Notes: generated by a model from the sequence alone, not told the origin. A DNA stretch of 64,000 nt from Planctomycetota bacterium (GCA_044222185.1 JBGANV010000002.1:32001-96000); one strand, 5' to 3'; positions 19,740 through 54,090 are shown, counted from the stretch's first letter. A program made the numbers and translations.

Positions 19740-19766
19740 TGATCGCGTTCGGGCTCGCCGTGTTGC
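19740..19766 (-). promoter_or_regulatory. Island promoter motif GCAAC-N16-CGATCA upstream of sctV
   Basis: + strand TGATCG 19740-19745, GTTGC 19762-19766. Confidence 0.75.
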
Positions 19767-19770
19767 ACGT

Positions 19771-19797
19771 GCAACGCCTCCGAGCCGACGACGATGA
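19771..19797 (+). promoter_or_regulatory. Island promoter motif GCAAC-N16-CGATGA upstream of the FHA/coiled-coil gene
   Basis: Back-to-back with the sctV site across the palindrome GTTGCACGTGCAAC. Confidence 0.7.
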
Positions 19798-19857
19798 AGG
19801 GATGAGGCCCCGTCCCGGCCGGCGCGAACCATGCGCCGACGCCGACGGGAATACACC

Positions 19858-21408
19858 ATGGATCATTCCGACGCAGAAACGTGCCCGCCGTCACCGACGG
19901 TCGACTCGGGCGCCCCTCCTGGTCCTCTGTCCGCGCCAACACAACTGGCTCTGGATCAGTGCGCGAAAGCGACGCGGGGAGCCGTCCTCGTTCAAACGGA
20001 AGGGGCGAACCGGGGTCGCCGGATCGCTCTGACTCCGGGCGAGCACACGATCGGGCGGGCCACGTGCCATTCGATTCCGGTGGACCCAAATGTCGATCGC
20101 GCAGTGTCGTCCCGCCACGCTCGCCTCCTTTCGAGCGGCGATGCCTGGTGGATCGAAGACCTGGGATCCACGAACGGAACGCTGGTCGACGGAGTGCCGC
20201 TTCAGGGTGGCGCACACACCTTGCACCCCGGTGCGCGAATCGAGGTCGGCCGCTCGGTGGGAGGCGACGTCGCTGGCACCGTGGCGTTCACCTTCGAATT
20301 GGAAGGCGAAGTCGCCCAGGACGGGTTCCGTGCGGTGGACGCGCATCATTCCGCATCCGGTTCGGCGTCGGCACCGTACGCAGACGTGGGCATGGGTGTC
20401 GACGTTCCGCCGCCCCCCGCCATGGGCGTCGCGCCGTCGCCGCGACGGCCACGGTTCGCCGATCTCCGTCACGCCGTCGAAAAAGGCCTCGGCCGGATCG
20501 TCTCACTGCCGGCTCGCATCCGCATCGAGGGTCAGATTCGCGATGCGCGGGAGCGGCTGGCCCAATTGGCGCCTCAGGCTCAACCAGCCCTCGGGGCGCT
20601 GGGAGCAGCGCTTGCAATCGAGGCTCCGGACGCGGTGCGACGAACGCCCCAGGCCGGGGAGCTCCAGCGATGCTGCGACGAGGCCGCGACTCGGCGCGTC
20701 GCCCAGGATCAGCTCACCCGCGATCGCGCGGAAATCGCCGAGAAACATGCAGAGGAAATGGCGGGCCATGAGCTCGCGATCAACGAGGCGGAGGCCGTCG
20801 CCGAGGTCGCGCGACGCGCGTTCGCTGCGGCACGCACCGAAGCGTCGCGGGATGAACAGGCGGTGCGGACGTACCTCCGCGAAGTGCAGCCAGCGTTCGA
20901 CGCCGCCGCGGCTGGACTCCGGGAAGCGGCCGCGGTGGCCGGAGGCGCTCCGATCCCCGACGACCTCAACCAACGCCTGGCGGCGTTGAATGCTCACCTG
21001 TCGGTCTGCGAGCCCGCCGCGCGGCGACTCGGCGAGGCTCTGGTCGTGCCGGAGGCCGCAAGACTCGCTTCGCGCCGTACGGCCGACACGGCCGCCGCGG
21101 CGCTGCACGGCGCGGAACAACGTGTGCGCGAACGACGCGACCTCGCATCCGCGACGCGCGCGAGGCATGACGCCAGCATCCAGGCGTTGGAGACTCGCGA
21201 GACGGCGGCACGTCAGGCCCTCGACGCGATGGCGTCGCGGACAGCTGAGGTCCACGCCGAGCTCGGCCGCACCGTGTTCCGCCAACGCATCGCCGCGGCG
21301 CTCGGACTTCCGGCCTTCGAGGGTGCCAGAGCCGCGCATGCCGCTCTCGTCGAGCAGGAAGATCTGATCGACAAACTCACGGCCGAGCTCCGGGCACATG
21401 GGGGGTGA
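19858..21408 (+). CDS. FHA-domain protein with long alanine-rich coiled-coil C-terminus
   Basis: FHA motifs IGR...VSSRHARL...DLGSTNGT; heptad-like A/E/R-rich tail; no TM; start ATG 19858. Confidence 0.85.
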   Translation: MDHSDAETCPPSPTVDSGAPPGPLSAPTQLALDQCAKATRGAVLVQTEGANRGRRIALTPGEHTIGRATCHSIPVDPNVDRAVSSRHARLLSSGDAWWIEDLGSTNGTLVDGVPLQGGAHTLHPGARIEVGRSVGGDVAGTVAFTFELEGEVAQDGFRAVDAHHSASGSASAPYADVGMGVDVPPPPAMGVAPSPRRPRFADLRHAVEKGLGRIVSLPARIRIEGQIRDARERLAQLAPQAQPALGALGAALAIEAPDAVRRTPQAGELQRCCDEAATRRVAQDQLTRDRAEIAEKHAEEMAGHELAINEAEAVAEVARRAFAAARTEASRDEQAVRTYLREVQPAFDAAAAGLREAAAVAGGAPIPDDLNQRLAALNAHLSVCEPAARRLGEALVVPEAARLASRRTADTAAAALHGAEQRVRERRDLASATRARHDASIQALETRETAARQALDAMASRTAEVHAELGRTVFRQRIAAALGLPAFEGARAAHAALVEQEDLIDKLTAELRAHGG

Positions 21409-21479
21409 GATACCCGGGTGCTGATGCGCGCGACTGCCGGGCCACCGATCGGCACAGAGGAATTCGGGGCAGGGTCGAT

Positions 21480-21506
21480 GCAACGGACGTTCGCGGAGAT
21501 CGCTTT
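21480..21506 (+). promoter_or_regulatory. Weak island motif variant GCAAC-N16-CGCTTT upstream of the CsgG-like lipoprotein
   Basis: Correct spacing and position, degenerate downstream box. Confidence 0.35.
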
Positions 21507-21583
21507 GTGAATCAGAACGAAACCGTCCGCCACGCATACGGAGCGGTCGGTTGCTGAACCTCACTTCCATTTGGAGTAATTCG

Positions 21584-22195
21584 ATGAAGACCGGTCTCCT
21601 GGTGCGATTGACGGTGGCGGCGCTTGCGGTTCTTGGCACGCAGATCGTCGGTGGCTGCGTCTCGACGGAATACACTCAGACGCAGCAGGACGCGAGCACG
21701 GCAACGCCGATCGCCGGCGTTCAGGGTGTCGCAGTCATCGTCGAGTCGACGCCGTACAGCAACCAATTTGGACAAATAGCGCAAACCGAAGTCGAGGCCG
21801 CAATGAAGTCTCGTGGGTTCCGCGTGATGAACCAGAAGGCCATCAAGGACGCACTCGAGCACTTCAAGCTCCAGGAATCGGATCTCACGACGACGACCGG
21901 CCGAGCCCAGATCGGGGAGTTCATGAACGTCCAGGCCTTCGTCTACGTCGCGGTCACGGAGGCCTCGAACTTCCAGGAAACCGGTACCTGGCCCTTCCGT
22001 ATCGACCCGCCGATCCCGTCGGTAAGCGCATCGATTTCGATCAAGCTCACGAGCCAGGGGCAGGTCGAGAACCTCTGGGTCGACACGATCCGGAAGAAGT
22101 CTCAGGGCTCCGACCTCTCACGCCACGTCCAGATCACTGCCGATCAGCTGATGCGCGAGCGCTTCCCGTACCGCGCCGGCCCCGCCGCGGGCTGA
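21584..22195 (+). CDS. Lipoprotein with CsgG/LpoB/TolB_N-like fold
   Basis: RBS GGAG; signal ending IVGGC; GFRVMNQKAIKDALEHFKLQESDL...AQIGEFMNVQAFVYVAV matches the CsgG-family pattern by eye. Confidence 0.6.
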   Translation: MKTGLLVRLTVAALAVLGTQIVGGCVSTEYTQTQQDASTATPIAGVQGVAVIVESTPYSNQFGQIAQTEVEAAMKSRGFRVMNQKAIKDALEHFKLQESDLTTTTGRAQIGEFMNVQAFVYVAVTEASNFQETGTWPFRIDPPIPSVSASISIKLTSQGQVENLWVDTIRKKSQGSDLSRHVQITADQLMRERFPYRAGPAAG

Positions 22196-22305
22196 GATCA
22201 GGCGGGAACAGATCGCGCAACGATCGTCCCAATCGACGCCGAAACAGGCCCACCCTCGATGTGATCGACGGTGGGCCTCGTCATCTCCGCGACGTGCTAC
22301 CGCCC

Positions 22306-22332
22306 GCAACGCCCCACCGCCCCGAACGATCA
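22306..22332 (+). promoter_or_regulatory. Island promoter motif GCAAC-N16-CGATCA
   Basis: Intergenic, about 70 nt upstream of ATG 22404. Confidence 0.75.
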
Positions 22333-22403
22333 ATCAGCATGCACCGGGAACGACCCGGGCGAGGCGGCGCCAATCGTGGATGCCGCGAGTCGAGGAGATC
22401 GCC

Positions 22404-23750
22404 ATGACGAACGTGAATCAGGTCAGCAGCGTCCGACGGCACGACATCGGTTTCCACCCCAAGCCCACGAGCCAACTGCAGGTCGGTGCAGGAACGATCG
22501 ACACGGGTCGATACCTGATCGAGATCCTGGGCCCTGGCGACGTGCGCGTGACGGATCGCACGAACAACACGAACTTCCGTGCCTGGGGTGATCCGCACAT
22601 CACGACCGGTGACAACGACCGTGCCCACTTCGAGGATGGACCGTTGACCATCGTCCTCCAGGACGGCACGCAGCTCACCTACGTGCCGACGGCGAAGGAC
22701 GCGAACGGGGTCGCGTGGCTCGACAAGCTCGCCGTCAAGCGGGGCAACGAAGCCGTGTGTGTCACGGACATCAAGACCGCTCCGAAGGTCGGTCAGGTCG
22801 GCCGCAACGCAGCCATGATCGACGGCTGCTTCGACCACGGCACTGTCATGTACGCTGGCGACCAGGTCGATGACCTGTTCTTCCAGGTTGACGGTCAGGA
22901 GCTGGTCGGCACCGATCCGCGCGGCGGTCAGTTCGGCGGCGAATGGGACCTGGATGGCCGCGGCGGAACGGCACCAACCTTCACGACTTCACCGATCCGC
23001 GGCACACCGTCGTTCCCGAACGACCCGGGCCGCCCGTGCGTTCTCCCACCGGCACCGCCGGCGATCTGGAACATGATCGAGAAGGGCCTCGCGGAACTCC
23101 TCCAGGGCGGACAGAACCCATTCGGCCACATGGACCCGCTGCGCGGGCTCGGCGCCCTTCTCATCCGCCAGTTGCTCCAGCAGTTCTGGTCGAACCTGGG
23201 CGGCGACGTGCCGTTCAAGCCGATCGGACCGCCGCAGAACGGCGGCTGCTTCGGACGCCCGGTTCATGCGCTGCGAGACTCTGCCTCGACCCCCGCGAAC
23301 GGCCAGGCGCCGGCGAATCTCGGAACGACGGGCTCCGTCGGGTCGAAGGGCAACTCGGTCGGCGGCAGCTCGGCCGGTGGGACCTCCGCGGCGGATGGCG
23401 TCACGTCGAACAACCGGGTCTACGGCGGAAAGTACTCGAGCAACGTCGACATCTTCACGCTCATCGCCATGATCCTTCACGACATGCAGGCCGACCTGGC
23501 GACCAAGGCGCAGGAACTCGCGAGCGTCTCGAACGAGATCAACACGCTCCGGGGCCAGTCGCCCCAGGGCGGCCAGCAGGCCGGCGGCGACACCACTCAG
23601 ATGTCGAACCTCGAGTCGAAGCGCAGCCAGCTCCTCTTCGAGATCGAGCAGCTCAAGCAGAAGATCACGGAGATGTCGGATCTGCGATCGAACATGTCGA
23701 AGACCGATCACGAGACCGCCATGACGATGATCCGGAACGTCGGGAACTGA
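22404..23750 (+). CDS. Putative T3SS substrate: N-terminal DUF1521/MIIA (GDPH autocleavage) domain plus needle/filament-like C-terminal helices
   Basis: RBS GAGGAG; WGDPH (22584-22598) in context VRVTDRTNNTNFRAWGDPHI...TIVLQDGTQLT; G/S-rich linker; C-terminus LRSNMSKTDHETAMTMIRNVGN; no Sec signal. Confidence 0.72.
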   Translation: MTNVNQVSSVRRHDIGFHPKPTSQLQVGAGTIDTGRYLIEILGPGDVRVTDRTNNTNFRAWGDPHITTGDNDRAHFEDGPLTIVLQDGTQLTYVPTAKDANGVAWLDKLAVKRGNEAVCVTDIKTAPKVGQVGRNAAMIDGCFDHGTVMYAGDQVDDLFFQVDGQELVGTDPRGGQFGGEWDLDGRGGTAPTFTTSPIRGTPSFPNDPGRPCVLPPAPPAIWNMIEKGLAELLQGGQNPFGHMDPLRGLGALLIRQLLQQFWSNLGGDVPFKPIGPPQNGGCFGRPVHALRDSASTPANGQAPANLGTTGSVGSKGNSVGGSSAGGTSAADGVTSNNRVYGGKYSSNVDIFTLIAMILHDMQADLATKAQELASVSNEINTLRGQSPQGGQQAGGDTTQMSNLESKRSQLLFEIEQLKQKITEMSDLRSNMSKTDHETAMTMIRNVGN

Positions 23751-23802
23751 GCGAGCAGCGCCGGACGGCGGGGCGCTCGCCCCCTGCATCCCGAGGCGCG
23801 CG

Positions 23803-23839
23803 CGACACCCACGGACGGCACTGCCGCCCGTGGGTGTCG
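23803..23839 (+). terminator. Strong hairpin after the MIIA gene (terminator or mRNA-stabilising stem)
   Basis: CGACACCCACGG...CCGTGGGTGTCG 12 bp perfect stem plus inner CGGCA/TGCCG; no clear U-tract. Confidence 0.5.
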
Positions 23840-23888
23840 GCATGTCAGGAGTCCTCTTCCGCGGGTGCAACCACTGGGGAATCCCACT

Positions 23889-23914
23889 GCAACCAAGGGC
23901 CGCCGAAACGATCA
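23889..23914 (+). promoter_or_regulatory. Island promoter motif GCAAC-N15-CGATCA
   Basis: Intergenic, about 70 nt upstream of ATG 23986. Confidence 0.7.
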
Positions 23915-23985
23915 CCAGGCAGTCGGTCGCAGCAACGTGCGCGATCGCGAATCACCGCCCATCAAGAGGACTGGGGAGAACGTCA

Positions 23986-25221
23986 ATGAGTTTCGGATTG
24001 GGAAGCCTGACCAAGGGGATACGGGACGTCGCGAAGGATGCCGTGGAATCAGTCGCTGGGAAAGCGGTCGACGCCGTGAAGGGAGTCGCGAAGGACGCGG
24101 CCAAGACGGTGGTGAAAGGCGGCCTCGCCTACGTCACCGGCGGCGCGTCGCTCCTCTTCGACAAGCAGATCGACAAAGCCATCGACAAGGGGATCGACAA
24201 GCTCGCCGATCGAGGCGAGAAGTACCTCGACCGCGCGGCCGACAAGCTGTTCGACGACGTCGAGGGACAGTTCGTGAAGCGGTCGAACGGTTCTGGCACC
24301 TCGGCTGACCTGCCATCGAACGATGAGCTGCGCCAGTCGTTCGTGGGCGACGTGCGAGGACTCATCGCGCCCCAGACTGGGGGCGCCGGCGTCGCGAAGA
24401 ACATCAACCCCGCCGCGGCAGCGTTCGTCGACGCGATCAAGCCGGCGGATGGAAAGAACATCAGCGAGGAACAGCTCTTCGCACTCGGCGCGTTCATCCG
24501 CACGGCCGCGCTCGCCGGACCCGCGGCGGCCCAGAAGTTCCTGGAGCAGTTCGCGGCACAGGCGTCGAAGCTCGGCGCAGGTGGCGGATCGGTGCCCGTC
24601 GAGAAGGCTACGGTCGCCGCGCTGCAGGACATGGTGAAGTCCGGCGCACTCCCGGCGGAACAGGCGGACAGGATCTACTCCGAAGCCTTCGCCGGCGCTC
24701 AGCTCGATCGCGACGCGTCGCAACTGTTCGACGGGACTGGCGGACCCAACGACCCGACGCAAGCCACGGCCCCGCTCGAGCAGGGACTGGGGAGCCTCTT
24801 CGATCGCCTGAACGGGTTCGGCAATGGGCAATCCGCAGCGCCACGCAAGCTCGCCGAGGCCAGGCCGGACGCGCGGCCGACGACCGCTCCCGGCGGCTCG
24901 GCGCCGGGATCGCGGGGCGGCATTCGCGTCGACGGTCCCCAGGGTTTCCTGTTCAAGCCGGTCTCCGACAGCGACGGGAAGCTCGTGGTGCTCCTCCCGA
25001 AGAAGTTCAGCGGAAAGGTGAAGAGCCTCGTCATCCGCGACTCGACGGGGAAGGTGATCGACAAGGGCCGTGCAACCGGTATCGGCAACGGCGATCGCGA
25101 GCACTTCCGCTTCAAGAAGGCGGGTGCGAGCTATCCCCCGAACGTCACCGTCGAGGTCACGCTCGAAGACGGAACGACGAAGAGCTGGCCCATCGGCGAC
25201 CCCTCGCAGCGCTACGACTGA
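23986..25221 (+). CDS. Hypothetical protein, candidate T3SS substrate (amphipathic K/D/A-rich N-terminal helices, beta-rich C-terminal domain)
   Basis: RBS GGGGAG; MSFGLGSLTKGIRDVAKDAVESVAGKAVDAVKGVAKDAAK; C-terminal GFLFKPVSDSDGKLVVLLP...GNGDREHFRF; own motif promoter. Confidence 0.65.
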   Translation: MSFGLGSLTKGIRDVAKDAVESVAGKAVDAVKGVAKDAAKTVVKGGLAYVTGGASLLFDKQIDKAIDKGIDKLADRGEKYLDRAADKLFDDVEGQFVKRSNGSGTSADLPSNDELRQSFVGDVRGLIAPQTGGAGVAKNINPAAAAFVDAIKPADGKNISEEQLFALGAFIRTAALAGPAAAQKFLEQFAAQASKLGAGGGSVPVEKATVAALQDMVKSGALPAEQADRIYSEAFAGAQLDRDASQLFDGTGGPNDPTQATAPLEQGLGSLFDRLNGFGNGQSAAPRKLAEARPDARPTTAPGGSAPGSRGGIRVDGPQGFLFKPVSDSDGKLVVLLPKKFSGKVKSLVIRDSTGKVIDKGRATGIGNGDREHFRFKKAGASYPPNVTVEVTLEDGTTKSWPIGDPSQRYD

Positions 25222-25329
25222 GCGGCCTTTCGCGCCAGCCGGGCCGTCGATCCGCGACGGCCCGCTCGCGCGATGTGAGCGACCAGGTCCTCCACCGGCA
25301 CACCTTTCTCCGAGTCCCCGGACGTTTCC

Positions 25330-25356
25330 GCAACAAGTCCGCCATGGCTGCGATGA
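25330..25356 (+). promoter_or_regulatory. Island promoter motif GCAAC-N16-CGATGA
   Basis: Ends 10 nt before kinase ATG 25367 (very short leader). Confidence 0.65.
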
Positions 25357-25366
25357 GAGGGGCATC

Positions 25367-28591: not shown

Positions 28592-28646
28592 GAAGCGGAC
28601 GCGGCGGCTGCCGCGCCCCCCGCCCGAGAGAATTTCGCACCGACGA

Positions 28647-28673
28647 GCAACGACCCGTTCCCGATTGCGATTG
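28647..28673 (+). promoter_or_regulatory. Island promoter motif GCAAC-N16-CGATTG upstream of the ECF sigma
   Basis: Intergenic, ends 9 nt before ATG 28683. Confidence 0.6.
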
Positions 28674-28682
28674 GAGGATGTC

Positions 28683-29525: not shown

Positions 29526-29713
29526 CGCTGGGGCCGCACTCCCGGCCCAGACGCGCCGCGGCTGCCCGCGCCGCGTTTTCCCCCGCCGACTCGCATCTTC
29601 CGCCATCCTGATTATCCTCTCCGGCGCCCCGGTCGAACCCGGGGCCCGCCCGGTTCAGGCCGAGGGCACCGACCGTCGACCTCGAGCCGATCGGACACGA
29701 CGGAGTGGAATCA

Positions 29714-32188: not shown

Positions 32189-32247
32189 GCGCTGGAGATT
32201 CGCGCCGTCGCCGCACCACGCGAGCGGCGGCGGCGACGGGCCCCTCG

Positions 32248-34634: not shown

Positions 34635-34837
34635 CAGGACCTCCTATGGACGCCTCCGGCAATGAGGGCGGCATTGTGCCACGAGGTCCCGAAACTGGAA
34701 GTCCGCACGACCAGGCCTGCGACGAGTCAGCGTGCACCTGGATCTCACCGCATGCGGAGCGGCGACGGTGGCCGCTTGCGGTCGGACCGTATCGCAGAGC
34801 TATCCACGACCGCCGCGCGCAGCAGAAGCGAGCGGTT

Positions 34838-35610: not shown

Positions 35611-35637
35611 TGAGCGAATGGTGTCGTCCCGCGTTGC
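35611..35637 (-). promoter_or_regulatory. Island motif variant GCAAC-N16-CGCTCA
   Basis: + strand TGAGCG 35611-35616, GTTGC 35633-35637; intergenic, upstream of ATG 35581. Confidence 0.55.
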
Positions 35638-36376: not shown

Positions 36377-36402
36377 TGATCGCTTGCTGGACGGCCCGTT
36401 GC
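36377..36402 (-). promoter_or_regulatory. Island promoter motif GCAAC-N15-CGATCA
   Basis: + strand TGATCG 36377-36382, GTTGC 36398-36402; upstream of the PLA2-like gene. Confidence 0.7.
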
Positions 36403-38411: not shown

Positions 38412-38438
38412 GATGATCGACTCGTCGGCGGCTCGCGG

Positions 38439-38708: not shown

Positions 38709-38722
38709 GATTTCACCGCCCT

Positions 38723-39902: not shown

Positions 39903-39929
39903 CTATCGCGATTCGCCCTCCCGCGTTGC
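39903..39929 (-). promoter_or_regulatory. Island promoter motif GCAAC-N16-CGATAG upstream of fliO-sctRSTU
   Basis: + strand CTATCG 39903-39908, GTTGC 39925-39929; intergenic. Confidence 0.7.
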
Positions 39930-42550: not shown

Positions 42551-42553
42551 GGA

Positions 42554-43954
42554 TCACCTCCTGGTCTGAGCGCAAATGGACCCGAGGAGTTGCAGCGTCC
42601 GATCCAATGGAACGGGTGGATCCGACTTGTTTTGAGGCAGGAGCGGAGACGGCACGGTCTCCGTCCCGCCGAAGAGTGCGCGCCCGGTGATGGCCGCGAG
42701 CCGACGGTCGAAAGCCGCGCGCCCCTCGACCGGCCTGAAGTCGTCAGGGTTGCGCCGAAACTCGTACGCGGAGCGCAGGGTCTCCTCCACGAGCCGCACG
42801 CACGCGATTCGCCGTTCGGCCTCCTCGGGCGATGCGCACTCCGCATCGATCACCGCGTCCCGCACGCGACTGACGCTGTCGAAGACGTCGATACCCGGAC
42901 GCCACCGGACCCGGTCGCCCAGCGGTCGCAGATAGAGGTGCCCGTCGAGGAGGCTCTTCACCTCTTCGGCGACGACGTCCAGTGAGCCGTCGGTGGAGTC
43001 CATCAGCACCGTGTAGATCGCCGTGATCGACCCCTGCTCCGTGTTTCCGGCACGTTCGAACAACCGTGGCAGCTCGGCGAACACGGATGGCGGATAACCT
43101 CCACGCCCGGGAGCCTCCTCGAGGGCCAACCCGAGATCTCTCACGGCGCGCGCAAACCGCGTCACCGAGTCCATCAAGAGCAGGACGTCGCGGCCCATGG
43201 CACGCTCGCGTTCCGCGATCGCCGTGGCGATGTGCGCCGCGCGCAGGCGGAGGACGGCCGGCTCGTCGGACGTGGAGACGACGACGGTCGCCTGGGCGCG
43301 CGCAGCCCCCAGATCGTTCTCCAGGAACTCCCTCACCTCACGTTGCCGTTCCCCGATCAGCGCGACGACGATCGAGCGGTTCGTCCTGTCCGCGTCGGCG
43401 TCCAGGCCGCCCTGGCCGAGACGCGTGTCTCGGAAGTAACGGGTGAGCATGCCGAGGAGCGTGCTCTTGCCGACGCCGGCGCCCGCGAAAATCCCAACGC
43501 GCTGGCCTTTGCCGAGCGGAAACAAGGCATCGATGATCTTCACCCCGGTCACGAGTCTTTCCCTGACGATCGGCCGCGACAGCACGTCCATCGGGGTCGG
43601 CTCGATCGCCGCGAGGTTGGGCCTGGCTCCGTGGTCCGAGAGGCGTTGGGTGATCCGGCCGTGTGCGTTCAGGACGCATCCGCGGAGGTCTCCGTCGATC
43701 TCGGCGAGCTCACCGCCGGAAGCGGGGATGACCCGCGCACCTTCCTGCAGGCCCTGAAGCGAGCCGAACGGCATGAGGTGGACGACCTCGTCCGAGAAGC
43801 CGATGACTTCCGCGGGCACGCTCGACGCCGAGTTCACGACGATCGCACACCGTTCGCCCAGACGTGCGTCGGGCAGCGCGGCCTTGATGACGACCCCGGA
43901 CTTGGACGCCGCGCGTACGATCCCCTCGCGGCGGACTCTTGCGGACGACGTCAT
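42554..43954 (-). CDS. sctN: T3SS ATPase SctN (FliI/YscN)
   Basis: Start ATG 43954; GQRVGIFAGAGVGKST, ALIGERQREVREF, LLLMDSVTRFARA, GYPPSVF, ERAG, GSITAIYTVL, SLLDGH. Confidence 0.95.
   Translation of the reverse strand: MTSSARVRREGIVRAASKSGVVIKAALPDARLGERCAIVVNSASSVPAEVIGFSDEVVHLMPFGSLQGLQEGARVIPASGGELAEIDGDLRGCVLNAHGRITQRLSDHGARPNLAAIEPTPMDVLSRPIVRERLVTGVKIIDALFPLGKGQRVGIFAGAGVGKSTLLGMLTRYFRDTRLGQGGLDADADRTNRSIVVALIGERQREVREFLENDLGAARAQATVVVSTSDEPAVLRLRAAHIATAIAERERAMGRDVLLLMDSVTRFARAVRDLGLALEEAPGRGGYPPSVFAELPRLFERAGNTEQGSITAIYTVLMDSTDGSLDVVAEEVKSLLDGHLYLRPLGDRVRWRPGIDVFDSVSRVRDAVIDAECASPEEAERRIACVRLVEETLRSAYEFRRNPDDFRPVEGRAAFDRRLAAITGRALFGGTETVPSPLLPQNKSDPPVPLDRTLQLLGSICAQTRR
42567..42593 (-). 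promoter_or_regulatory. Island motif variant GCAAC-N16-CGCTCA inside the sctN 3' end, upstream of the sctO-like gene
   Basis: + strand TGAGCG 42567-42572, GTTGC 42589-42593. Confidence 0.4.
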
Positions 43955-46622: not shown

Positions 46623-47074
46623 GACTGGCTCGACATCAACGTGCGAACGGCATTGGAGGCACTTCCGACGACCTGGGAGACGATGGCGACGGAAGACGAC
46701 ATCTCGTAGACGGAGGCTTGGAGCTTCAAGAACGCCTCCATCTTCTGGTTCTCGAGTTCCACCATGGCCGGGTCATCGGCGGTGACGCCCGCAGAGCGGA
46801 GCGCCTTCATCTCCGCGTTGATGCGCGAGAGGGTCGATTCGCACGCGGCGAGGCGCTCGCGAACGAATCCCGCCGGCCCGTTTCCCGCGGCGACTGCCGC
46901 GGCAGCGAATTGACCGTCAGTCGGTACGGCGACCGACGTCGGATCGACCTGCCGCGGAGGGACGACGAACGGACGCCCTCCAGCGGGAGCCTCGACGCTC
47001 TTCGGCGCCGGTACGGACGACGCGCCGTCGGGACGTGTCAGACCCGGGCTGCGGACTCCATCGATGTGCGGCAT
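46619..47074 (-). CDS. SctI-like inner rod protein
   Basis: Start ATG 47074; disordered N-terminus; C-terminal FLKLQASVYEMSSSVAIVSQVVGSASNAVRTLMSSQ; directly upstream of sctJ. Confidence 0.68.
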   Translation of the reverse strand: MPHIDGVRSPGLTRPDGASSVPAPKSVEAPAGGRPFVVPPRQVDPTSVAVPTDGQFAAAAVAAGNGPAGFVRERLAACESTLSRINAEMKALRSAGVTADDPAMVELENQKMEAFLKLQASVYEMSSSVAIVSQVVGSASNAVRTLMSSQS

Positions 47075-47081
47075 GGGAAGG

Positions 47082-47504
47082 TCACTCCGTTGCGCGGGAC
47101 GCCCGCAGGTAGACTTCGTCGAACAGATTGCGAAGCGACGGATCCATGGCGACCTGATCGGCAATCGCCGCCTTCACCTCGGGCGGGGTGCCTGGTCCGA
47201 ACGCACGGTCGATTTCCGCATCGATCACGCGATTGCGAATCGCATCCCGGCTCTCGCCGTTGCGAATGCCATCGGCGACGACGCCTCGCACGCGTTCGGT
47301 GACGCTTCCCGTCGGCACGGCGGCTTGCGTCGAAATCCCGGCCGCTCCTGGGGCCAGCCCCTGCGCGAACTCGGGCCGGTCGCTGAACCGGGCCCCATCC
47401 GCCGTCGGCGGACCGAGCCCCGGGTCCCGATGGCTCGGACCGATCGGATCCGATGGCCCCCTCGGTGGCGGGAGTGGCGAACCGGTACCTGTGATTCCAT
47501 TCAT
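47082..47504 (-). CDS. Hypothetical protein in the YscH slot, possible secreted substrate
   Basis: G/S/P-rich N-terminus MNGITGTGSPLPPP, small helical C-terminal domain; own motif promoter. Confidence 0.6.
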   Translation of the reverse strand: MNGITGTGSPLPPPRGPSDPIGPSHRDPGLGPPTADGARFSDRPEFAQGLAPGAAGISTQAAVPTGSVTERVRGVVADGIRNGESRDAIRNRVIDAEIDRAFGPGTPPEVKAAIADQVAMDPSLRNLFDEVYLRASRATE

Positions 47505-47534: not shown

Positions 47535-48026
47535 CTAAGCAGTGATCGTGGTGGCGTTGGATCCGTTGCGCCGAGCTCGGGCCACGCGTTGCAGTTCGGC
47601 CGCCGCTCGACCGCCATCCGTCCCGCGCCCGACCTGTCGAGCGCGATCGAACAGGCTCGCGATCGCCTGCGTTTCGCGCTCGTCCGCCGGAAGCCTCAGG
47701 CTCAGGTCGTGACGTGCGGCGCCCTCGAGCCCGAGGGCGAACGCCAGTTCCCCGGCGTTCAGGCGGGGTTTCGCCATCGCAGCCCGCGCATGCTGGACGG
47801 CGGCCTCGGGCCGACCCTCGAGCCACGATATGAGCGCAAGCTGGACGTCGACGAACCCGCTCTGCGGCTGGAGGATCATGAGCGCGCGATAGAGATCGCG
47901 TGCTCCGTCGAGCCACCGCAGCATCACCATGAAGTGGGCGACCTCGGCGAGGAACCGCACTCGCTCCACCCGACGGTCGTCGGGCGCGAGCCCCGCGAGG
48001 ACCTCATGTAGAACCGGCTTTTCCAT
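47535..48026 (-). CDS. Small TPR protein, YscG/SctY-like chaperone
   Basis: ARDLYRALMILQP...LALISWLEGRPEAAVQHAR TPR pattern; directly after the needle-like gene. Confidence 0.6.
   Translation of the reverse strand: MEKPVLHEVLAGLAPDDRRVERVRFLAEVAHFMVMLRWLDGARDLYRALMILQPQSGFVDVQLALISWLEGRPEAAVQHARAAMAKPRLNAGELAFALGLEGAARHDLSLRLPADERETQAIASLFDRARQVGRGTDGGRAAAELQRVARARRNGSNATTITA
47543..47569 (-). promoter_or_regulatory. Island promoter motif GCAAC-N16-CGATCA inside the 3' end of the TPR gene
   Basis: + strand TGATCG 47543-47548, GTTGC 47565-47569; about 40 nt upstream of ATG 47504. Confidence 0.65.
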
Positions 48027-48062: not shown

Positions 48063-48347
48063 TCACGGCTTGATGTTGCGGACGGCTTCCATCCCTGCGT
48101 CGTGATAGGTCTTCGAGATGTTCGATCGCAGGGAGAACTCCTGCATCACGGCTTGCATCTCGACCTGCTTCTCGAACAAGGCGTCGAGACGACTGATCTG
48201 ATCGCCGCCCCCGCCGAGACCGAGGAATGATGCGCCGATCCCCAAGGGCGAGCCGCTCAGCACCGTCGACACCGCGGCCCCGAAAGTCGTGCCTCCGAGG
48301 CTTGCACCGGAAAAACCAAGACCGCCGCTGAAGGACCCGGCACCCAT
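48063..48347 (-). CDS. SctF-like needle/filament subunit, 94 aa
   Basis: RBS GAGGAG, ATG 48347; G/S-rich N-terminus; C-terminal LFEKQVEMQAVMQEFSLRSNISKTYHDAGMEAVRNIK resembles needle-subunit C-termini. Confidence 0.65.
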   Translation of the reverse strand: MGAGSFSGGLGFSGASLGGTTFGAAVSTVLSGSPLGIGASFLGLGGGGDQISRLDALFEKQVEMQAVMQEFSLRSNISKTYHDAGMEAVRNIKP

Positions 48348-48398
48348 GACGTTGCTCCTCATGCTCCGCGCCCAGGATCGGGCGAGGCTCGCTGGTGA

Positions 48399-48425
48399 TG
48401 ATCGGATCCGAGTCGGAGGCGTTGC
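48399..48425 (-). promoter_or_regulatory. Island promoter motif GCAAC-N16-CGATCA upstream of the needle-like gene
   Basis: + strand TGATCG 48399-48404, GTTGC 48421-48425; intergenic. Confidence 0.75.
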
Positions 48426-48454: not shown

Positions 48455-48760
48455 TCAGGCGTTTCCGAGCTTCCGCAGCTCCGCCACGAATGCCCCCGCT
48501 GCGCCGAACGCATGGTCGACGCGGTCGATGGCTTCCGCATCGTCGGTGCAGACCGAACGTGCCGACGCGAGCCAATCCCGCACTTCGCCGAGGAACCCGT
48601 CGAGTTCGGAACAGCGATCGCCGCTCCAGGACGCCGTCAGCATCCGGTGCAGGACGTCGCCCCCTCGAAGGGGTTCCGCGGGCTTGGATTCCGGCTGATC
48701 TGCCGGCGCTCGATCTGACGCGTTCATCACCTGCTCCTCCTCATCCGTTGGTCGCTTCAT
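48455..48760 (-). CDS. Small helical protein, possible YscE-like needle co-chaperone
   Basis: About 100 aa, helical, ends DHAFGAAGAFVAELRK; directly upstream of the needle-like gene. Confidence 0.5.
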   Translation of the reverse strand: MKRPTDEEEQVMNASDRAPADQPESKPAEPLRGGDVLHRMLTASWSGDRCSELDGFLGEVRDWLASARSVCTDDAEAIDRVDHAFGAAGAFVAELRKLGNA

Positions 48761-50111
48761 GGATCAGCCGGCGCATCTCGGCGACGACGCGATCGGCGGT
48801 TTTCTGAGTGGACCCGAACGGGTCGGCGGCGTCGTCGCCGCCCCGGTGTTCCGCCGCATCCAACGCCGCGCGCATCCCGTCCGAGTCGTGCGCGGCGAAT
48901 GCCGCGAAGAACCTCTGCGTCGCGTTCCAGAACGGCGAGAACCCCATGTCGACCGTCCCAGCCGTCGTTGCGACGAACTGGGAGAACCCGGCCAGGTCGT
49001 CAAGCGTGTCCTTCGTTCCTTCCTGGAGGAACCGCTGGGTGTAGACGACCAGCAGCCCGGCAACGAGCGGATCGTAGTTCGCGGCGAGCGCGGTCGGTCG
49101 CGCACGGAAATCGAGGAACGCCTCGAACTGAACGCGTGCCTTGTCGAATTCGCCGATCTCCATGTAGGTCGCGCCCAGTCGGAACTTCACGACGAACAAG
49201 TTCTTGTCGATCGTGAGAACTTCGCGCAGACGCTCGGCGTAAGCGCGCATGCGCGCGACGTACGCGGGATCGTGGGCCTTGACCGCCGGTCCCATGGCAT
49301 CGACGGATTCATCGAGATCCGTTGCGGCGCGCTCCGCCTGGATCAGGGCGCGGCTCGCCTCGAAGACGTCCGAGCGCCACGTCGCGCCAGGAACTCCGTT
49401 GCCGGGACCCCGAGCCGCGACGTTCCACGACCAGCTCTCCTTCAACCACGTCGCGACGATGCGCTTGGCAGCCGTCGGAGTGATCGTGGGGTCGTCTCGC
49501 AGGCGGCTCGAGTTGAACACTGCCCCGATGTTCGCTGCGAAGTTCTTCCCGATGATCGTTCCGAGGAACGAGAGGAACGCCTCGCCCGGCGGTTGGTCCC
49601 ACGCCTCGAGGGACGACGTGGCGACCTCCGCGCTCTCGAGGTAGCGGCGGGCTTCTGCGTACTTGCCTTCGAGACGCGCGATCAGGGCGAGCCCGATCCA
49701 CGCAGGCGGCCAGTCCGGGCAGATCCGCAGGGCATCGCCGAAGTGGTTGAACGCAAGCGCGTGTGCGCTCTCGGCCGCCGCGCCGCGCGGATGCCGCAGC
49801 GCCACGGCGTCGAGGCGCATTTCCCCGAGCTTCGAGTGGAACAAGAAGCACTGGGGGTCGTGTTGGATCGCGTCATCGAGCGGGCGGAGAACCAGACGCC
49901 GGCGTCCGCTCTCGAGTTCGTCTTGCGACAGTGGCGCGGAGTGGAGTTCGAACCAGCCCCGTCGCGCTTCCTCGTATTTCGTCTGACCGGCCTGGCTCAA
50001 GAACAGCGCATCCCGGTCCGGGATCTCGCGCGAAGCACAACCAGGCACGAAAACGATCACCAACGTGACGATCGCCATCACGACTGCGCGGCAGGTGGAC
50101 TCGAGGGTCAT
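48741..50111 (-). CDS. TPR-containing lipoprotein heading the T3SS operon
   Basis: Signal ending FVPGC; TPRs ALRICPDWPPAWIGLALIARLEGKYAEA and LGATYMEIGEFDKA; start ATG 50111 or 50123. Confidence 0.75.
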   Translation of the reverse strand: MTLESTCRAVVMAIVTLVIVFVPGCASREIPDRDALFLSQAGQTKYEEARRGWFELHSAPLSQDELESGRRRLVLRPLDDAIQHDPQCFLFHSKLGEMRLDAVALRHPRGAAAESAHALAFNHFGDALRICPDWPPAWIGLALIARLEGKYAEARRYLESAEVATSSLEAWDQPPGEAFLSFLGTIIGKNFAANIGAVFNSSRLRDDPTITPTAAKRIVATWLKESWSWNVAARGPGNGVPGATWRSDVFEASRALIQAERAATDLDESVDAMGPAVKAHDPAYVARMRAYAERLREVLTIDKNLFVVKFRLGATYMEIGEFDKARVQFEAFLDFRARPTALAANYDPLVAGLLVVYTQRFLQEGTKDTLDDLAGFSQFVATTAGTVDMGFSPFWNATQRFFAAFAAHDSDGMRAALDAAEHRGGDDAADPFGSTQKTADRVVAEMRRLIHEATNG

Positions 50112-50213
50112 TGGACGCTCCATGGAGGGTTCGCCCCGCGGTCGTTGCGGGCCCGACGGTGCAGAGCAGCGATCACCGAGCCCGTGACGGGCCAGGCCAC
50201 TGCCTCCGCAGTG

Positions 50214-50240
50214 CAATCGCATTTGCTGGCGCTCCGTTGC
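50214..50240 (-). promoter_or_regulatory. Island promoter motif GCAAC-N16-CGATTG upstream of the main T3SS operon
   Basis: + strand CAATCG 50214-50219, GTTGC 50236-50240; divergent intergenic region. Confidence 0.62.
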
Positions 50241-50306: not shown

Positions 50307-50333
50307 GCAACGACGCTCCGCGTTCCGCGATCG
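50307..50333 (+). promoter_or_regulatory. Island promoter motif GCAAC-N16-CGATCG upstream of the FHA-protease gene
   Basis: Intergenic, about 70 nt upstream of ATG 50404. Confidence 0.62.
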
Positions 50334-50403: not shown

Positions 50404-52254
50404 ATGGCCGAGACCCTGATCGTCCGTCACGCTGCCAACTCGACCCTCGCTGGCCGGGAGCAACGGTTCACCAAGCCCGTCGTCCGCATCGGGCGGCGTC
50501 GCGGCAACGACGTCGTGTTCGACGAAGCGCAGGATCGGCTGGTCTCCGCCGTCCACGCGGAAGTCCGAACGGAGCCCTCCGGCGTCACGCTCGTCGACCT
50601 CGAGTCCAGCAACGGGACCTTCGTCAACGGGCGAAGACTGCGGCCGCACCAACCCTCGCGCATCGGCCCGTCGGACGACGTGCAGCTGGGCGGACCCACG
50701 GGCCCGCGCCTGTCGCTGTTCGCCGATGGTCCGCCTCCGTTCGCTCGGGGCGCCGACGAATTCGGCAGCGCGACGATCATCAATCGCCCGAAGGAACGTT
50801 CTGCGTCCCCCGCCATTCCCGCCGTTCCCATGCACGGCCAGAAGCAGGGCATCGGTCAGGCGACGCTCTTTCGCGTCGTCAGCGCCGCAACGGCCCACGA
50901 GCGACGGCGCGTCGTGTGGATCGCGACGGGCCTGCTCGTCGTCGCCGTCGGAGCGGCTGCGGCGTACTTCTTCTTTTGGCCCCCGCCGATACCACCCGTC
51001 GTCGTCGACGCGGATGCGGCGGCACTGAGCCGCAAGTTGAACGAGTACAAGGGCTCGGTCTACGTCGTCGCGCGACGATCGCGTGACCAGAACAACAACG
51101 TCACGGACGATCCGTTCGGAACGGCATGGTCCTGCGCCCCCGGACTTCTCGCGACGAATGGCCACGTGGCACGGGCGTTCGCCAACCTGAAGCCGGGAGA
51201 GACGCTGATCGCGCGGAGCGGCGCGACACCGCCGGTCGACCTCATGCTGGTCGGGCAACGGACTCACCCTGGCTACCTCGAGTTCGAGGATCTGGTGAAG
51301 CGGTACACGCTCAACCTCTCGGCCGCCCCATTCGAGTCGATCAAGGGCGGGTGCGACATCGCCGTGCTCGAGGTCGACCCGGGGTACGTCCCGCGACAAG
51401 CGCCCCCGCTGCCGATCGCCTCGGACGCAGAGCTCGGCTCCATGAAGCAGATGGACTCGGTCGGGTTCATCGGCTTCACCATGGAGAACCGCGGCCTGAA
51501 CATGGAGCGCCCGGTACCGATCATGGCGAACGGCGGGATCTCGAGCATCTCCGACTTCTTCCTGGGCGCCGCACCTTCGGACCGTGGCGAACTGATCGCG
51601 TTCACTGCCGCCGGCGGAGGCGGCGCAAGTGGGAGCCCGGTCATCGCCGCCAGTGGGAAAGTCGTCTGCCTCCTGTATGCCGGCGACGTGACGACTTCCG
51701 GACACTCGGGTCCACGAGTCAGTGTCCCCGGCGCCCAAACGTACGGCCAACGCGCGAACATCCTGCGCGAGCTCCTCGATGGGAGCATGTCGGCCCGACA
51801 GCCGATTCGGCGCGCCAGCTGGGAGCAGTCACTCCGACCGCTCTTCGAGCAAGCGAACGCGGAGTTCATCAACGCCGCGCTCAAGGACCAATCCGTCGCG
51901 CTGCGGCGCGCCGGCAAGATTCGCTATCCGGACAACGCCGTCGTCAGCGACGTCTGGGAGGAGGTCGACTCGAGGAAGGTGCGGATGAGCGGAGTCGGCG
52001 CGGCGAACGCGGCGACGGTCGAGATGCGGACGCTCCGCACGGGCTTCCACTTGATCATCGCCGTTCCGACGACTGGCCCGGCGAACATCGACATCATCGC
52101 GCCGGGTGCCGAGGACACGGCGGGAGACTTCATCCCGATAATCGGTCAACGCATCGCCCCTGGTCAGCCGGCAGTCATCCGTGTCGTGAACGCCGACACG
52201 CTCCTCACCGGCGCAGTCGAAGCGAACGTCAAGTGCTTCCGGCTGAAGGTCTGA
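50404..52254 (+). CDS. FHA-TM-trypsin-like serine protease fusion
   Basis: FHA IGR...VSAVHA...DLESSNGT; TM; triad motifs TNGHVA, DIAVL, GASGSPV. Confidence 0.88.
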   Translation: MAETLIVRHAANSTLAGREQRFTKPVVRIGRRRGNDVVFDEAQDRLVSAVHAEVRTEPSGVTLVDLESSNGTFVNGRRLRPHQPSRIGPSDDVQLGGPTGPRLSLFADGPPPFARGADEFGSATIINRPKERSASPAIPAVPMHGQKQGIGQATLFRVVSAATAHERRRVVWIATGLLVVAVGAAAAYFFFWPPPIPPVVVDADAAALSRKLNEYKGSVYVVARRSRDQNNNVTDDPFGTAWSCAPGLLATNGHVARAFANLKPGETLIARSGATPPVDLMLVGQRTHPGYLEFEDLVKRYTLNLSAAPFESIKGGCDIAVLEVDPGYVPRQAPPLPIASDAELGSMKQMDSVGFIGFTMENRGLNMERPVPIMANGGISSISDFFLGAAPSDRGELIAFTAAGGGGASGSPVIAASGKVVCLLYAGDVTTSGHSGPRVSVPGAQTYGQRANILRELLDGSMSARQPIRRASWEQSLRPLFEQANAEFINAALKDQSVALRRAGKIRYPDNAVVSDVWEEVDSRKVRMSGVGAANAATVEMRTLRTGFHLIIAVPTTGPANIDIIAPGAEDTAGDFIPIIGQRIAPGQPAVIRVVNADTLLTGAVEANVKCFRLKV

Positions 52255-52261
52255 AGCCGCC

Positions 52262-53971
52262 GTGCACGCAAGAACACGTGAATGGGCTCGCGATGGTCGA
52301 CGGAGCGCGCTCGTCGCCGTGGCGATCGCCTTGGCGGCGTGCGTCATCGACCGCCCGGCTCGCGCCCAGGCCGAGCGCACCGTGCCCGCCGAGTTGGCGC
52401 AAGCAGCAGACGCACACGCCTACCGGAAGGCGGCGGAAGGGCTCGACGAGCTCCTTCGCGGATGCGAGGACGACACGTCCCGAACGGTGGTGGAACGGCG
52501 ACGCCTGCGCGCGCGGTGGTTCGAGTCGGCCGTCGCGGCCGAGCCGGGGGACGTCTTGTTGCGTGCCGCGGCCGTTCGCGCGCTGAAGGCCCACGCCCGC
52601 GACCTCGACCTTTCGGACCCGAAACGCGCCGACGTCGAGCGACGCGCCGAGGCGCTCTCGGCGTCCCGGGTGCCGACCGAGTCAGCGCCCGCACCGGCGG
52701 TCCGCCGAGGCTCGAGCGAGTCGGAGGTCGTGGCGTCGAGACTGCGATCGGTGATGAGAACTGCCATCTCCGCGTCCGACAGCGCGTCGATCGACGTGCG
52801 CGTCGCACTCATCGACGAGGCCCGCGCCGCCCTGGCGCGGATTGCCGTTCCGCAAGCGCTTCGGATCGAGGCGGCCGCCTGTCGTGCTCGCATCGCGCTC
52901 GCGGCCGGCGACTGGCGCGAGGGCGTCGCCGCCGCCGAGATCCTGCGGCCGCTCCGCGGGGCCGCGTCCGTCCCTTCTGGCTCGGATCTCTCGAGGACGC
53001 TCGATCTCATCGAGGATCGACATTGGTTCGACGCGATCGCGGACGTCGAACGGAGGGAGAGCCAGAAGGCCGCTGCCATCACGCTGCTGGAGGTTCGCGC
53101 CCGACGGGAGCGACGCCTCGTCGAGGCGGGATTCGAAGCCATGCCCCGCGGCGGTCTGGCGGACGGCGGATCGGGAATGCCTCGCCTGGTGAAACATCGT
53201 CGCACGGGCCTCGTGTTCGTCCTCATCGAACCGTCGGCCGTCGAAGACGGTCGCCTCGAAGCGGCCTTCGAATCGGCGACGAGCGCCGATGATCCATCGG
53301 AGTCGCCGGGGCCAGCGTTCCAACCGATCGCGTCGCCGGTCTACGTCGGGGTCTGCGAAGTCTCGAATGCTGCCTACCGGCTGGTCGTCCCCGGCCACGC
53401 CGAGTCGGGCCTGCCGAAGATCGATGATCCGGCCTGCTCGGCATCGAATGCTGCCTATCCCGCCACCGCCATCTCGCACGACGAGGCCTCGGCGTTCTGC
53501 CTGCGCTTCGGCTTCACCCTGCCCTCGCTCGCCGAGTGGGTCGCCGTCCTGCGTGCGTCGCACTCGGACCTGGACCTGGCGAACGGCGCGTTCGTGGCCG
53601 CGGCCCTCGCGCCGCGATTCGGCCCGCTTCCGAACTTCTGGGACACGTCCGCCGTCGCGCGACTCCGACACCCGACGGGAGGAGAGCCGTTCCCCTGGGA
53701 TGACCGTGCCGTCGTCTTGCGGCGCGCCACGTGCGAAATCGGCGATGCGTCGAAGGTCACGCCAGTCGACGTGCTCGGGAACGTCGCCGAGTGGCTCGAG
53801 CCGAGTCAACCGCATCAACCGCCAATCGCGCTCGCTGCGGGAGGCTCATGGCTGACTCCGCTGCCTGCGACGCTCGCCGACCGCGCGCGGCTCCTCTTCG
53901 CGCGTCGACACGAAGCTGACGAGCGGTTCGCGGACGTGGGGTTCCGGCCCGCGTTCCGAATCGACCCCTGA
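52262..53971 (+). CDS. Exported protein with helical N-terminus and C-terminal FGE-sulfatase (SUMF1-like) domain
   Basis: Signal ending PARAQA; YVGVCEVSNAAY, EASAFC...LPSLAEW, DVLGNVAEW, GGSW, DVGFRP. Confidence 0.8.
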   Translation: MHARTREWARDGRRSALVAVAIALAACVIDRPARAQAERTVPAELAQAADAHAYRKAAEGLDELLRGCEDDTSRTVVERRRLRARWFESAVAAEPGDVLLRAAAVRALKAHARDLDLSDPKRADVERRAEALSASRVPTESAPAPAVRRGSSESEVVASRLRSVMRTAISASDSASIDVRVALIDEARAALARIAVPQALRIEAAACRARIALAAGDWREGVAAAEILRPLRGAASVPSGSDLSRTLDLIEDRHWFDAIADVERRESQKAAAITLLEVRARRERRLVEAGFEAMPRGGLADGGSGMPRLVKHRRTGLVFVLIEPSAVEDGRLEAAFESATSADDPSESPGPAFQPIASPVYVGVCEVSNAAYRLVVPGHAESGLPKIDDPACSASNAAYPATAISHDEASAFCLRFGFTLPSLAEWVAVLRASHSDLDLANGAFVAAALAPRFGPLPNFWDTSAVARLRHPTGGEPFPWDDRAVVLRRATCEIGDASKVTPVDVLGNVAEWLEPSQPHQPPIALAAGGSWLTPLPATLADRARLLFARRHEADERFADVGFRPAFRIDP

Positions 53972-54063
53972 CCCGCCGTCGTCCGTGAGGTCGCCGACCG
54001 GCCGATCGCATGGCGCCATCAACGGTGCGCGGTCCGCGCGTCGCGATCGAATTCACTCGATGC

Positions 54064-54090
54064 ACAACGGGGCGCGCGGTTTCACGCTGA
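54064..54090 (+). promoter_or_regulatory. Weak island motif variant ACAAC-N16-CGCTGA upstream of the FHA-TM gene and FliA-like sigma
   Basis: Ends 10 nt before ATG 54101, same geometry as the kinase and ECF sites. Confidence 0.35.

Follow-up and report, generated by a model that had tools for sequence, protein, structure and literature searches.

The 64,000-nucleotide window analysed here (positions 32001-96000 of contig C6 in the genome of a Planctomycetota bacterium, G000) carries a non-flagellar type III secretion system (T3SS) island of ~38 kb, between 17.4 and 55.8 kb, in which a bipartite motif, GCAAC-N15/16-CGAT, faces the starts of most operons. Judged from the sequence, the motif is probably (with a chance of about 0.6 in our estimate) the promoter, GCAAC-N16(15)-CGAT(C/A)A, of a regulon that would extend over nearly every transcription unit of the island and be read by an island-encoded paralog of the sigma factor FliA, here named T3sig. 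The G000 assembly comprises 7.08 Mb in 16 contigs with 67.5% GC, and was compared with five related Planctomycetota genomes (G020, G043, G336, G401 and G402); five of these six genomes are draft assemblies from metagenomes. Genes were called with a purpose-built, crude codon-usage caller, on which the start positions depend, and were named by their Pfam and NCBIfam matches. The named genes are collected in Table 1 with the motif copies; orphan genes also belong to the contents of the island.

Exact matches to GCAAC-N15/16-CGAT number 16 in the window, where 1.90 ± 1.37 would be expected; no shuffled sequence out of 100 had as many. Twelve of them had been listed in an earlier note on this DNA as sites that each face a nearby start, and all twelve were found at the places and on the strands given there, with coordinates that had been drawn two bases too long. 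All are intergenic or lie at gene edges, with a start codon on the same strand 12-93 nt downstream (the 19771 site being measured to the ATG at 19831). Three of the four remaining exact matches, at 25072 (+), 58097 (-) and 60502 (-), lie in coding sequence and the fourth, at 47239 (-), in the open reading frame (ORF) 47082-47504; outside 19.7-54.1 kb the window holds no intergenic match at all. The whole genome has 243 matches, 37 of them intergenic, and 12 of these 37 fall in the island, whose non-coding DNA amounts by our own gene calls to ~4.3 kb of 769 kb genome-wide, while coding sequence, with 206 matches in 6.3 Mb, is at background level. The enrichment that the earlier note had wished to see checked against shuffled sequence and the genome background is thus borne out by both.

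The enrichment depends on the exact spacing and letters. In the intergenic DNA of the island ten matches were obtained with N16 and two with N15, as compared with 0-1 for each of N11-14 and N17-21; exchange of the second block for 14 other tetramers gave two matches with CGCT, one each with CGAC and CGAG and none with the remaining 11, and exchange of the first block for 15 other pentamers gave one match with GCACC and none with the other 14. A blind enumeration of 5-mer/N13-19/4-mer pairs ranked the GCAAC/CGAT motif first in G000, where it occurs in 9 of 29 upstream regions; in G020, G043 and G336 the motif was unranked, for G020 owing to faulty gene calls, and the sites in that genome were placed by hand. 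The extended form of the motif is (G)(C/T)GCAAC(G)-N-CGAT(C)(A). Beyond CGAT, which was fixed by the search pattern, the fifth base is C in seven of the twelve sites and the sixth is A in eight and never C or T; the form CGATCA precedes sctV and five other genes (sites 19742, 22306, 23889, 36379, 47545 and 48401), as had been noted before. The spacers share no sequence, and the motif is therefore not a repeat element.

The four CGCT-type variants described earlier are likewise present (21480 (+), 35613 (-), 42569 (-) and, beginning with ACAAC, 54064 (+)), but GCAAC...CGCT is not enriched by count (3 against 1.68 expected, with 22 of 100 shuffles reaching 3) and only position supports these copies. 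The lack of enrichment of the variants and the mere background rate of matches in coding sequence are what one would expect if the pattern were a chance or compositional artefact of a GC-rich genome, an idea to which we give practically no credence: the observed count of exact matches was not reached by shuffling, the enrichment is tied to spacing and letters, and the motif is kept at orthologous genes in five further genomes that vary in GC between 56% and 68% over the fetched regions. As far as sequence statistics can show, such an artefact is already refuted.

Among the ~20 operon heads of the island, 12 have an exact site and 4 a weak variant, whereas at three or four there is either no copy even when two mismatches are allowed or only an N17 form with one mismatch. 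In practice the motif marks island operon heads, and it singles out the orphans at 21.6-25.2, 34.8-36.3 and 47.1-48.4 kb as candidates for co-regulated substrates or chaperones. Outside the island, matches in promoter position numbered 7, against ~9 expected for two spacings (single control spacings gave 1-9, mean 4.4). A weight matrix, with the lowest leave-one-out score as threshold, placed 12 of 22 promoter-position sites in the island and 10 outside it, against 8-12 at control spacings. Since outside matches are at chance level, the motif does not serve as the genome-wide effector finder that had been hoped for and gives at most one lead, a site on contig C1 (799082-799106 (+), 23.3 bits) which alone among the outside sites scores like those of the island. 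The gene that begins 71 nt after it (799177-799752) encodes a hypothetical protein of 191 aa and is a candidate further member of the regulon.

SctV, like the ECF sigma, has no close relatives, and a peptide-pattern scan of genome contigs for it revealed none. With the DUF1521-like protein as a marker, T3SS of this type turned up in 2 of 23 genomes from the order and, at the level of the phylum, in 4 of 401 sampled genomes (G000, G020, G043 and G336); G401 and G402 were added by an alignment-based scan. In all six genomes GCAAC-N16-CGA stands upstream of the DUF1521-like gene, at 50-92 nt from the start (G000 50, G020 92, G401 64, G402 72, G043 68 and G336 58 nt; the G402 site was located by hand). 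G020 has 84 motif matches in ~5 Mb, six of them within 27 kb of the island; five of the six are followed after 24-152 nt by a start codon that has a ribosome-binding site, and four of these precede orthologs (25-46% identity) of genes that bear the motif in G000, namely the TPR gene, the DUF1521-like gene, w48063 and w23986. In both G401 and G402, GCAAC-N16-CGATAA or CGATCA occurs before the DUF1521 gene and also inside the sctO-like gene ahead of the ortholog of w41148, and G401 has further sites before the ortholog of w48063 and, as in G000, where sctU ends, before the ortholog of w35731. Of 103 GCAAC-N16-CGAG matches in G336, 7 lie within 65 kb around the island, and of 17 GCAAC-N16-CGA[CG]AA matches in G043, 4 lie within 45 kb of it. 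The orthologous -10 blocks are CGATAA in G401, G402 and G020, CGAGAA in G336 and CGACAA in G043. Nine letters, their spacing, strand and distance to the start have thus been kept before proteins that are only 30-46% identical, which is strong evidence of function. Together with the positions of the sites, this conservation supports the earlier suggestion that kinases, FHA genes and orphans may be linked with the T3SS apparatus in a single regulon.

A match beside an ECF gene in G020 (C22:9409) was rejected, as the ATG overlaps CGAT and an in-frame GTG lies upstream. Two DUF1521-domain relatives labelled Pseudomonadota (L054 and L056) have no site upstream; their DUF1521-like domain stands at the end of long acidic-repeat proteins.

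Two unlike blocks, always facing a gene and held at a fixed distance of 16 bp, have the anatomy of a -35/-10 pair. The same features make it improbable that the motif is an operator of a DNA-binding regulator or some other non-promoter signal, as dimeric operators do not typically have unlike halves in one direction at a fixed 16 (15) bp, and in a scan of 39 proteins from the island and its flanks the two sigma factors were the only DNA-binding families. An operator would fit the three cases in which an ATG follows the second block after only 12-13 nt, awkward for a -10 box, and the perfect palindrome formed by one back-to-back copy at 19762-19775. That palindrome, GTTGC-ACGT-GCAAC on the (+) strand, arises where the -35 blocks of the divergent sctV and FHA/SctD-like sites meet, and two polymerases could hardly bind there simultaneously.

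Taken as a promoter, the motif resembles those of sigma-28. The Escherichia coli sigma-28 consensus is given as TAAAGTTT-n11-GCCGATAA in excerpts of PMC2859248, which is equivalent to TAAAG-N16-CGATAA and so has the same geometry as GCAAC-N16-CGAT(A/C)A. Both the -10 core CGATAA and the spacing of sigma-28-type promoters are found again (N16 in 10 of the 12 sites and N15 in 2), and two flagellin genes of G000 itself carry TCAAG-N16-CGACAA and TCAAG-N17-CGATAG, so that the -35 blocks of island and flagellin promoters, G-CAA-C and T-CAA-G, differ at both flanks. We read the motif as a putative sigma-28-type promoter with altered -35 flanks, in which GCAAC would be the -35 and CGATNA the -10 element. 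As a separate observation, a second bipartite pattern, TCAAG-N18-CGAnnA, has 19 matches in G000, 13 of them intergenic and 11 of these at most 300 nt upstream of a start (for example C1:975802, C6:768026 and C15:256155), and may be the promoter of yet another sigma.

A dedicated promoter for one of the island's sigma factors, as proposed in the earlier note, is thus supported by position, orientation, strict spacing and conservation in five genomes, while still being deduced from sequence. The note had left the choice between the FliA-like and the ECF-type (extracytoplasmic function) sigma open; here the evidence favours the former, homologs of which occur with the motif in or beside all six islands (counting a split copy in G020) and which fits the sigma-28 geometry and -10 core, over the latter, found in two of six. 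A T3sig profile search detected orthologs on the island contigs of G043, G336, G401 and G402, and its next-best matches were the flagellar FliA genes adjoining flhA in G000 and G020; in G000 these flagellar genes lie on contig C7 (FliA at 394570-395268) and the flagellin genes on C1. The G020 copy, beside the TPR gene (C12, ~5262-5892 (-); tblastn E 7.6e-18), is split over two reading frames, which reflects either decay to a pseudogene or a fault of assembly in a genome that is 81% complete.

T3sig scores below the curated FliA/WhiG cut-offs (51.8 bits against 189.6 for TIGR02479, and 53.9 against 201 for NF005413) and matches Pfam Sigma70_r2 and Sigma70_r4 with no match to Sigma70_r3; its closest database proteins likewise have no precomputed Sigma70_r3 match, and in the alignment its linker is FliA-like in length. 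A profile of five T3sig proteins, run against 5.8 billion proteins, brought up ~13 T3sig-like proteins, named in their sources only as sigma-70 family, before the FliA-named proteins begin. In a tree of 37 proteins, T3sig and 12 metagenomic kin stood apart from 20 FliA proteins with a support of 100/98, the G000 branch being long. Alignment of the five T3sig proteins with three planctomycete FliA proteins showed that region 2 is common to both, whereas the recognition helix of region 4.2 reads TESRVSQ in FliA and NK(S/A)x(V/I)SR in T3sig. A shared region 2 and a changed region 4.2 helix fit a kept -10 and a changed -35.

The motif might instead be read by a sigma encoded outside the island, such as the flagellar FliA, or the two island sigmas might read overlapping versions of it. 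The common xCAAx-N16/17-CGAxA frame of the flagellin promoters lends itself to such a view, as does G020, which has kept the motif with a broken T3sig gene and an intact flagellar FliA gene adjoining flhA. We think this rather unlikely, given that there is no exact GCAAC match before the flagellin genes, that none is found there among the 7 outside promoter-position matches, that TCAAG and GCAAC differ at both -35 flanks and that the region 4.2 helices are class-specific; moreover, a regulon confined to the island is most simply explained by an island-encoded factor.

Somewhat better placed, though still improbable, is the ECF-type sigma of the island, which would read the motif and regulate its own gene in the manner of HrpL and the hrp box, leaving another task to the FliA-like sigma. 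The AAC in the -35, the CG-initial -10 and N16 all fit ECF promoters; examples from Corynebacterium glutamicum are GGAACT-N16-CGTT and one GCAACC-N16-CGTT, in excerpts of PMC10012870. A perfect site directly precedes the ECF gene, as in autoregulated ECF sigmas, and in G020, which is the closest relative to share the CGAT flavour, the ECF-like gene next to the orthologous kinase is intact whereas T3sig is present only in frameshifted form. On the other hand, ECF-like ORFs were found in only two of the six islands (G000 and G020) while the motif is kept elsewhere: none was seen on the complete island contigs of G401 (76 kb) and G402 (63 kb) or over 80 kb of G336, and the single one in G043 lies 3.5 kb from T3sig and ~50 kb from the T3SS core. 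The G000 and G020 ECF proteins share 26% identity (E 1e-5) without being reciprocal best matches, and the G020 gene lacks the motif upstream, having a TTGACG...ATAAT-like pair instead. In addition, the -10 block begins with CGA and not with the CGT usual for ECF promoters, and the island ECF sigma has no close homolog: two proteins were found at E<=0.001, one of which is the window's own, and no relative was closer than 35% identity.

In G000 the kinase at 25367-28591 lies directly upstream of the ECF gene, and its ortholog stands beside the ECF gene of G020. In the kinase-activated ECF43 sigmas, the acidic motif of region 2.2 is replaced by QTTA with a phospho-threonine (excerpts of PMC13147305). 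Region 2.2 reads DAEDVIQ in the window's ECF protein and TAEDVVQE in that of G020, and membership of the island ECF in ECF43 was rejected because the acidic DAED motif is kept.

Several points weigh against T3sig as the reader of a sigma-28-type promoter. The sigma-28 -35 element TAAA(G) is absent, all twelve sites having GCAAC, and in none of the twelve does GC directly precede CGA as it does in sigma-28 promoters. AAC is a hallmark of ECF -35 boxes. With T3sig so far below the FliA/WhiG cut-offs and with no match to Sigma70_r3, one cannot deduce from FliA what T3sig recognises. The perfect site before the ECF gene and the case of G020, where the motif is well kept beside a T3sig gene frameshifted in the assembly and an ECF-like gene that is intact, tell in the same direction, and the enrichment in G336 and G043 is modest, with different -10 blocks (CGAGAA and CGACAA). 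Lastly, at the kinase, the ECF sigma gene and the FHA-T3sig operon the ATG stands just 12-13 nt past CGAT or CGCT (25355-25369, 28672-28685 and 54089-54103), so that a leader of ~5 nt or less would remain and the apparent ribosome-binding site would be cut off. Either the mRNAs of these three genes are nearly leaderless or their true start codons lie farther downstream; the database version of the ECF protein has 209 aa.

If T3sig is nonetheless the reader, it would stand at the top of the cascade, a place suggested by the absence of a good motif before the FHA-T3sig operon in any of the genomes. Active T3sig would then switch on the apparatus operons, the genes for the DUF1521-like and orphan candidate substrates, those for the Ser/Thr kinases and FHA proteins, and the ECF sigma gene, which with its perfect upstream site would be a target and not the reader. 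The FHA gene directly upstream of T3sig is conserved as its partner in G043, G336 and G402, and in its product an N-terminal domain is followed by an FHA domain, a proline-rich linker and, at the C-terminus, a membrane helix; besides this protein, two other FHA proteins and two Hanks-type kinases are encoded in the island. Such a membrane-anchored, phospho-threonine-reading partner may hold or release T3sig, FlgM and FliA being the simplest analogue. Prediction of a complex between the FHA protein (residues 1-245) and T3sig gave a score of 0.00, which speaks neither for nor against their binding. Tentatively, as the secretin-less T3SS of Planctomycetota diverged from the flagellum, it could have retained, or acquired by duplication, the sigma of the flagellar late genes along with the export apparatus. 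In that case T3sig and its GCAAC-N16-CGATAA promoter would be a relic of this split in regulation, with a -35 re-tuned against cross-talk and a control rewired from the FlgM style to an FHA protein that is anchored in the membrane and responds to the Ser/Thr kinases of the island.

Table 1. Named genes of the T3SS island and copies of the motif, in window coordinates.
Feature	Position	Strand	Remarks
sctV	17396-19654	-	FHIPEP family match
FHA / SctD-like gene	19831-21408	+	ATG 19831
DUF1521-like gene	22380-23750	+	
Ser/Thr kinase, Hanks-type	25367-28591	+	
ECF-type sigma gene	28683-29525	+	28686-29525 used in searches
Second Ser/Thr kinase, Hanks-type	29714-32188		
fliO-like, sctR, sctS, sctT, sctU operon	39864 down to 36443	-	
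sctN, sctL, sctJ	42.5-46.6 kb	-	
TPR protein gene	48741-50123	-	
FHA-trypsin protein gene	50404-52254	+	followed by 52319-53971
FHA-domain protein with C-terminal membrane helix	54101-54994	+	directly upstream of the FliA-like sigma gene
T3sig, FliA-paralog sigma	55009-55794	+	proposed reader of the motif
GCAAC-N16-CGATCA	19742..19766	-	88 nt upstream of sctV
GCAAC-N16-CGATGA	19771..19795	+	36 nt upstream of ATG 19831, FHA / SctD-like gene
Variant GCAAC-N16-CGCT	21480..21504	+	80 nt upstream of orphan 21584-22195; weak, position only
GCAAC-N16-CGATCA	22306..22330	+	50 nt upstream of DUF1521-like gene; equivalent in 6/6 islands
GCAAC-N15-CGATCA	23889..23912	+	74 nt upstream of orphan 23986-25221; G020 ortholog also with site
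GCAAC-N16-CGATGA	25330..25354	+	ATG of kinase 25367-28591 begins 13 nt past CGAT
GCAAC-N16-CGATTG	28647..28671	+	ATG 28683 of ECF-type sigma begins 12 nt past CGAT
Variant GCAAC-N16-CGCT	35613..35637	-	26 nt upstream of orphan 34838-35587; weak
GCAAC-N15-CGATCA	36379..36402	-	55 nt upstream of orphan 35731-36324; same layout after sctU in G401
GCAAC-N16-CGATAG	39905..39929	-	41 nt upstream of fliO-like/sctR/S/T/U operon
Variant GCAAC-N16-CGCT	42569..42593	-	in 3' end of sctN, 19 nt upstream of 41975-42550; weak
Exact match	47239..47263	-	inside ORF 47082-47504, 75 nt upstream of 46619-47164, ahead of sctI-like gene
GCAAC-N16-CGATCA	47545..47569	-	41 nt upstream of 47082-47504; operon head, running on through sctJ, sctL, sctN
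GCAAC-N16-CGATCA	48401..48425	-	39 nt upstream of 48063-48362; N16 site at G020, G336 and G401 orthologs, N17 at G043 ortholog
GCAAC-N16-CGATTG	50216..50240	-	93 nt upstream of TPR gene; G020 ortholog also with site
GCAAC-N16-CGATCG	50307..50331	+	73 nt upstream of FHA-trypsin gene
Doubtful variant ACAAC-N16-CGCT	54064..54088	+	ATG 54101 begins 13 nt after; equivalent operon elsewhere without motif

The match at 47239 could be either an internal promoter or fortuitous. A gene halfway through the island that encodes a protein with collagen repeats and a phage tail collar domain (32248-33501 (-)) has no motif site upstream. No secretin is linked to the island: none of the 39 island and flanking proteins matched the Secretin family, and all eight matches to it in G000 lie on other contigs. 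The presence of a FliO-like gene in a secretin-less island recalls the secretin-less 'Myxo' T3SS type mentioned in excerpts of PMC3459982.

DNA nearly identical to 19600-29500 occurs, in whole or in part, in metagenome runs from activated sludge, sludge or bioreactors (20 rows from 8 studies); five of the 20 rows contain at least half of the sampled words of that segment, and one run may be the source. Three further studies yielded pieces of 225-1851 nt that aligned to the island with 0-8 differences. When contigs of four DNA runs were compared with 19700-39690, ~0.4-0.5% of letters differed and no motif core was hit among the 40 of 102 variable places shown, numbers whose power is far too low to speak of constraint.

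The control of a T3SS by a single dedicated alternative sigma has a well-known precedent in HrpL. The hrp box recognised by HrpL is GGAACC-N15/16-CCACNNA. As would be the case in the island, one short bipartite box stands before nearly all apparatus and substrate operons, and expression of the sigma gene itself depends on a different promoter; excerpts of an account of the HrpL regulon also describe hrp boxes inside upstream ORFs (PMC4544800). HrpL differs in being an ECF sigma, its box has a -10 unlike that of the island, and its regulon includes many scattered effector genes, whereas the regulon proposed here is confined to the island with at most one candidate outside. A second parallel is offered by the ECF43 sigmas (EcfP/PknT, and EcfK/PknS controlling type VI secretion), whose genes likewise stand beside a Ser/Thr kinase gene in a secretion locus according to excerpts of PMC13147305, but which have QTTA where the island ECF has DAED; in the view favoured here, the island ECF is not the reader.

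The sigma-28 of Chlamydia, a T3SS-bearing lineage of the same superphylum, is also a FliA-family sigma with no link to a flagellum. Its regulon as defined by ChIP, in excerpts of PMC12282069, consists of hctB and tsp and not of T3SS genes; the sole orthology test, with the NCBIfam sigma-28 model NF004572, gave a 22-bit match for T3sig.

Closest is the sigma-28 (FliA/WhiG) system itself, whose promoters share with the motif a 5-mer, N16 and CGATAA, the island -10 core being CGAT(A/C)A, and whose FliA proteins are the nearest relatives of T3sig; in both, the machine controlled is a type III export apparatus. The island departs from it in a -35 that is GCAAC and not TAAAG or TCAAG, in the lack of GC before CGA and in targets that belong to a non-flagellar secretion island. 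T3sig itself forms a separate clade below the curated FliA cut-off, with no region 3 match, and its partner gene encodes a membrane-anchored FHA protein, no search for a FlgM-type anti-sigma having been made.

A full-text search for Planctomycetota and injectisome returned no paper, and none was found on T3SS regulation in this phylum, among the parts of the literature seen; nor did titles and abstracts reveal a case comparable to a FliA paralog serving an injectisome. The T3sig clade is rare, with about a dozen metagenomic proteins among 5.8 billion and a handful of Planctomycetota genomes. Through it, a connection between the regulation of flagellar and of non-flagellar type III systems can be put to the test in a phylum whose T3SS have hardly been described, and it offers with its flagellar counterpart a natural pair of paralogous sigmas and promoters (TCAAG and GCAAC with the same -10) in which the divergence of -35 specificity can be studied. 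The design of one sigma and one box over a T3SS is thus already known from HrpL; what is new is a box of sigma-28 geometry, with a hitherto unnamed clade of FliA paralogs as its likely reader.

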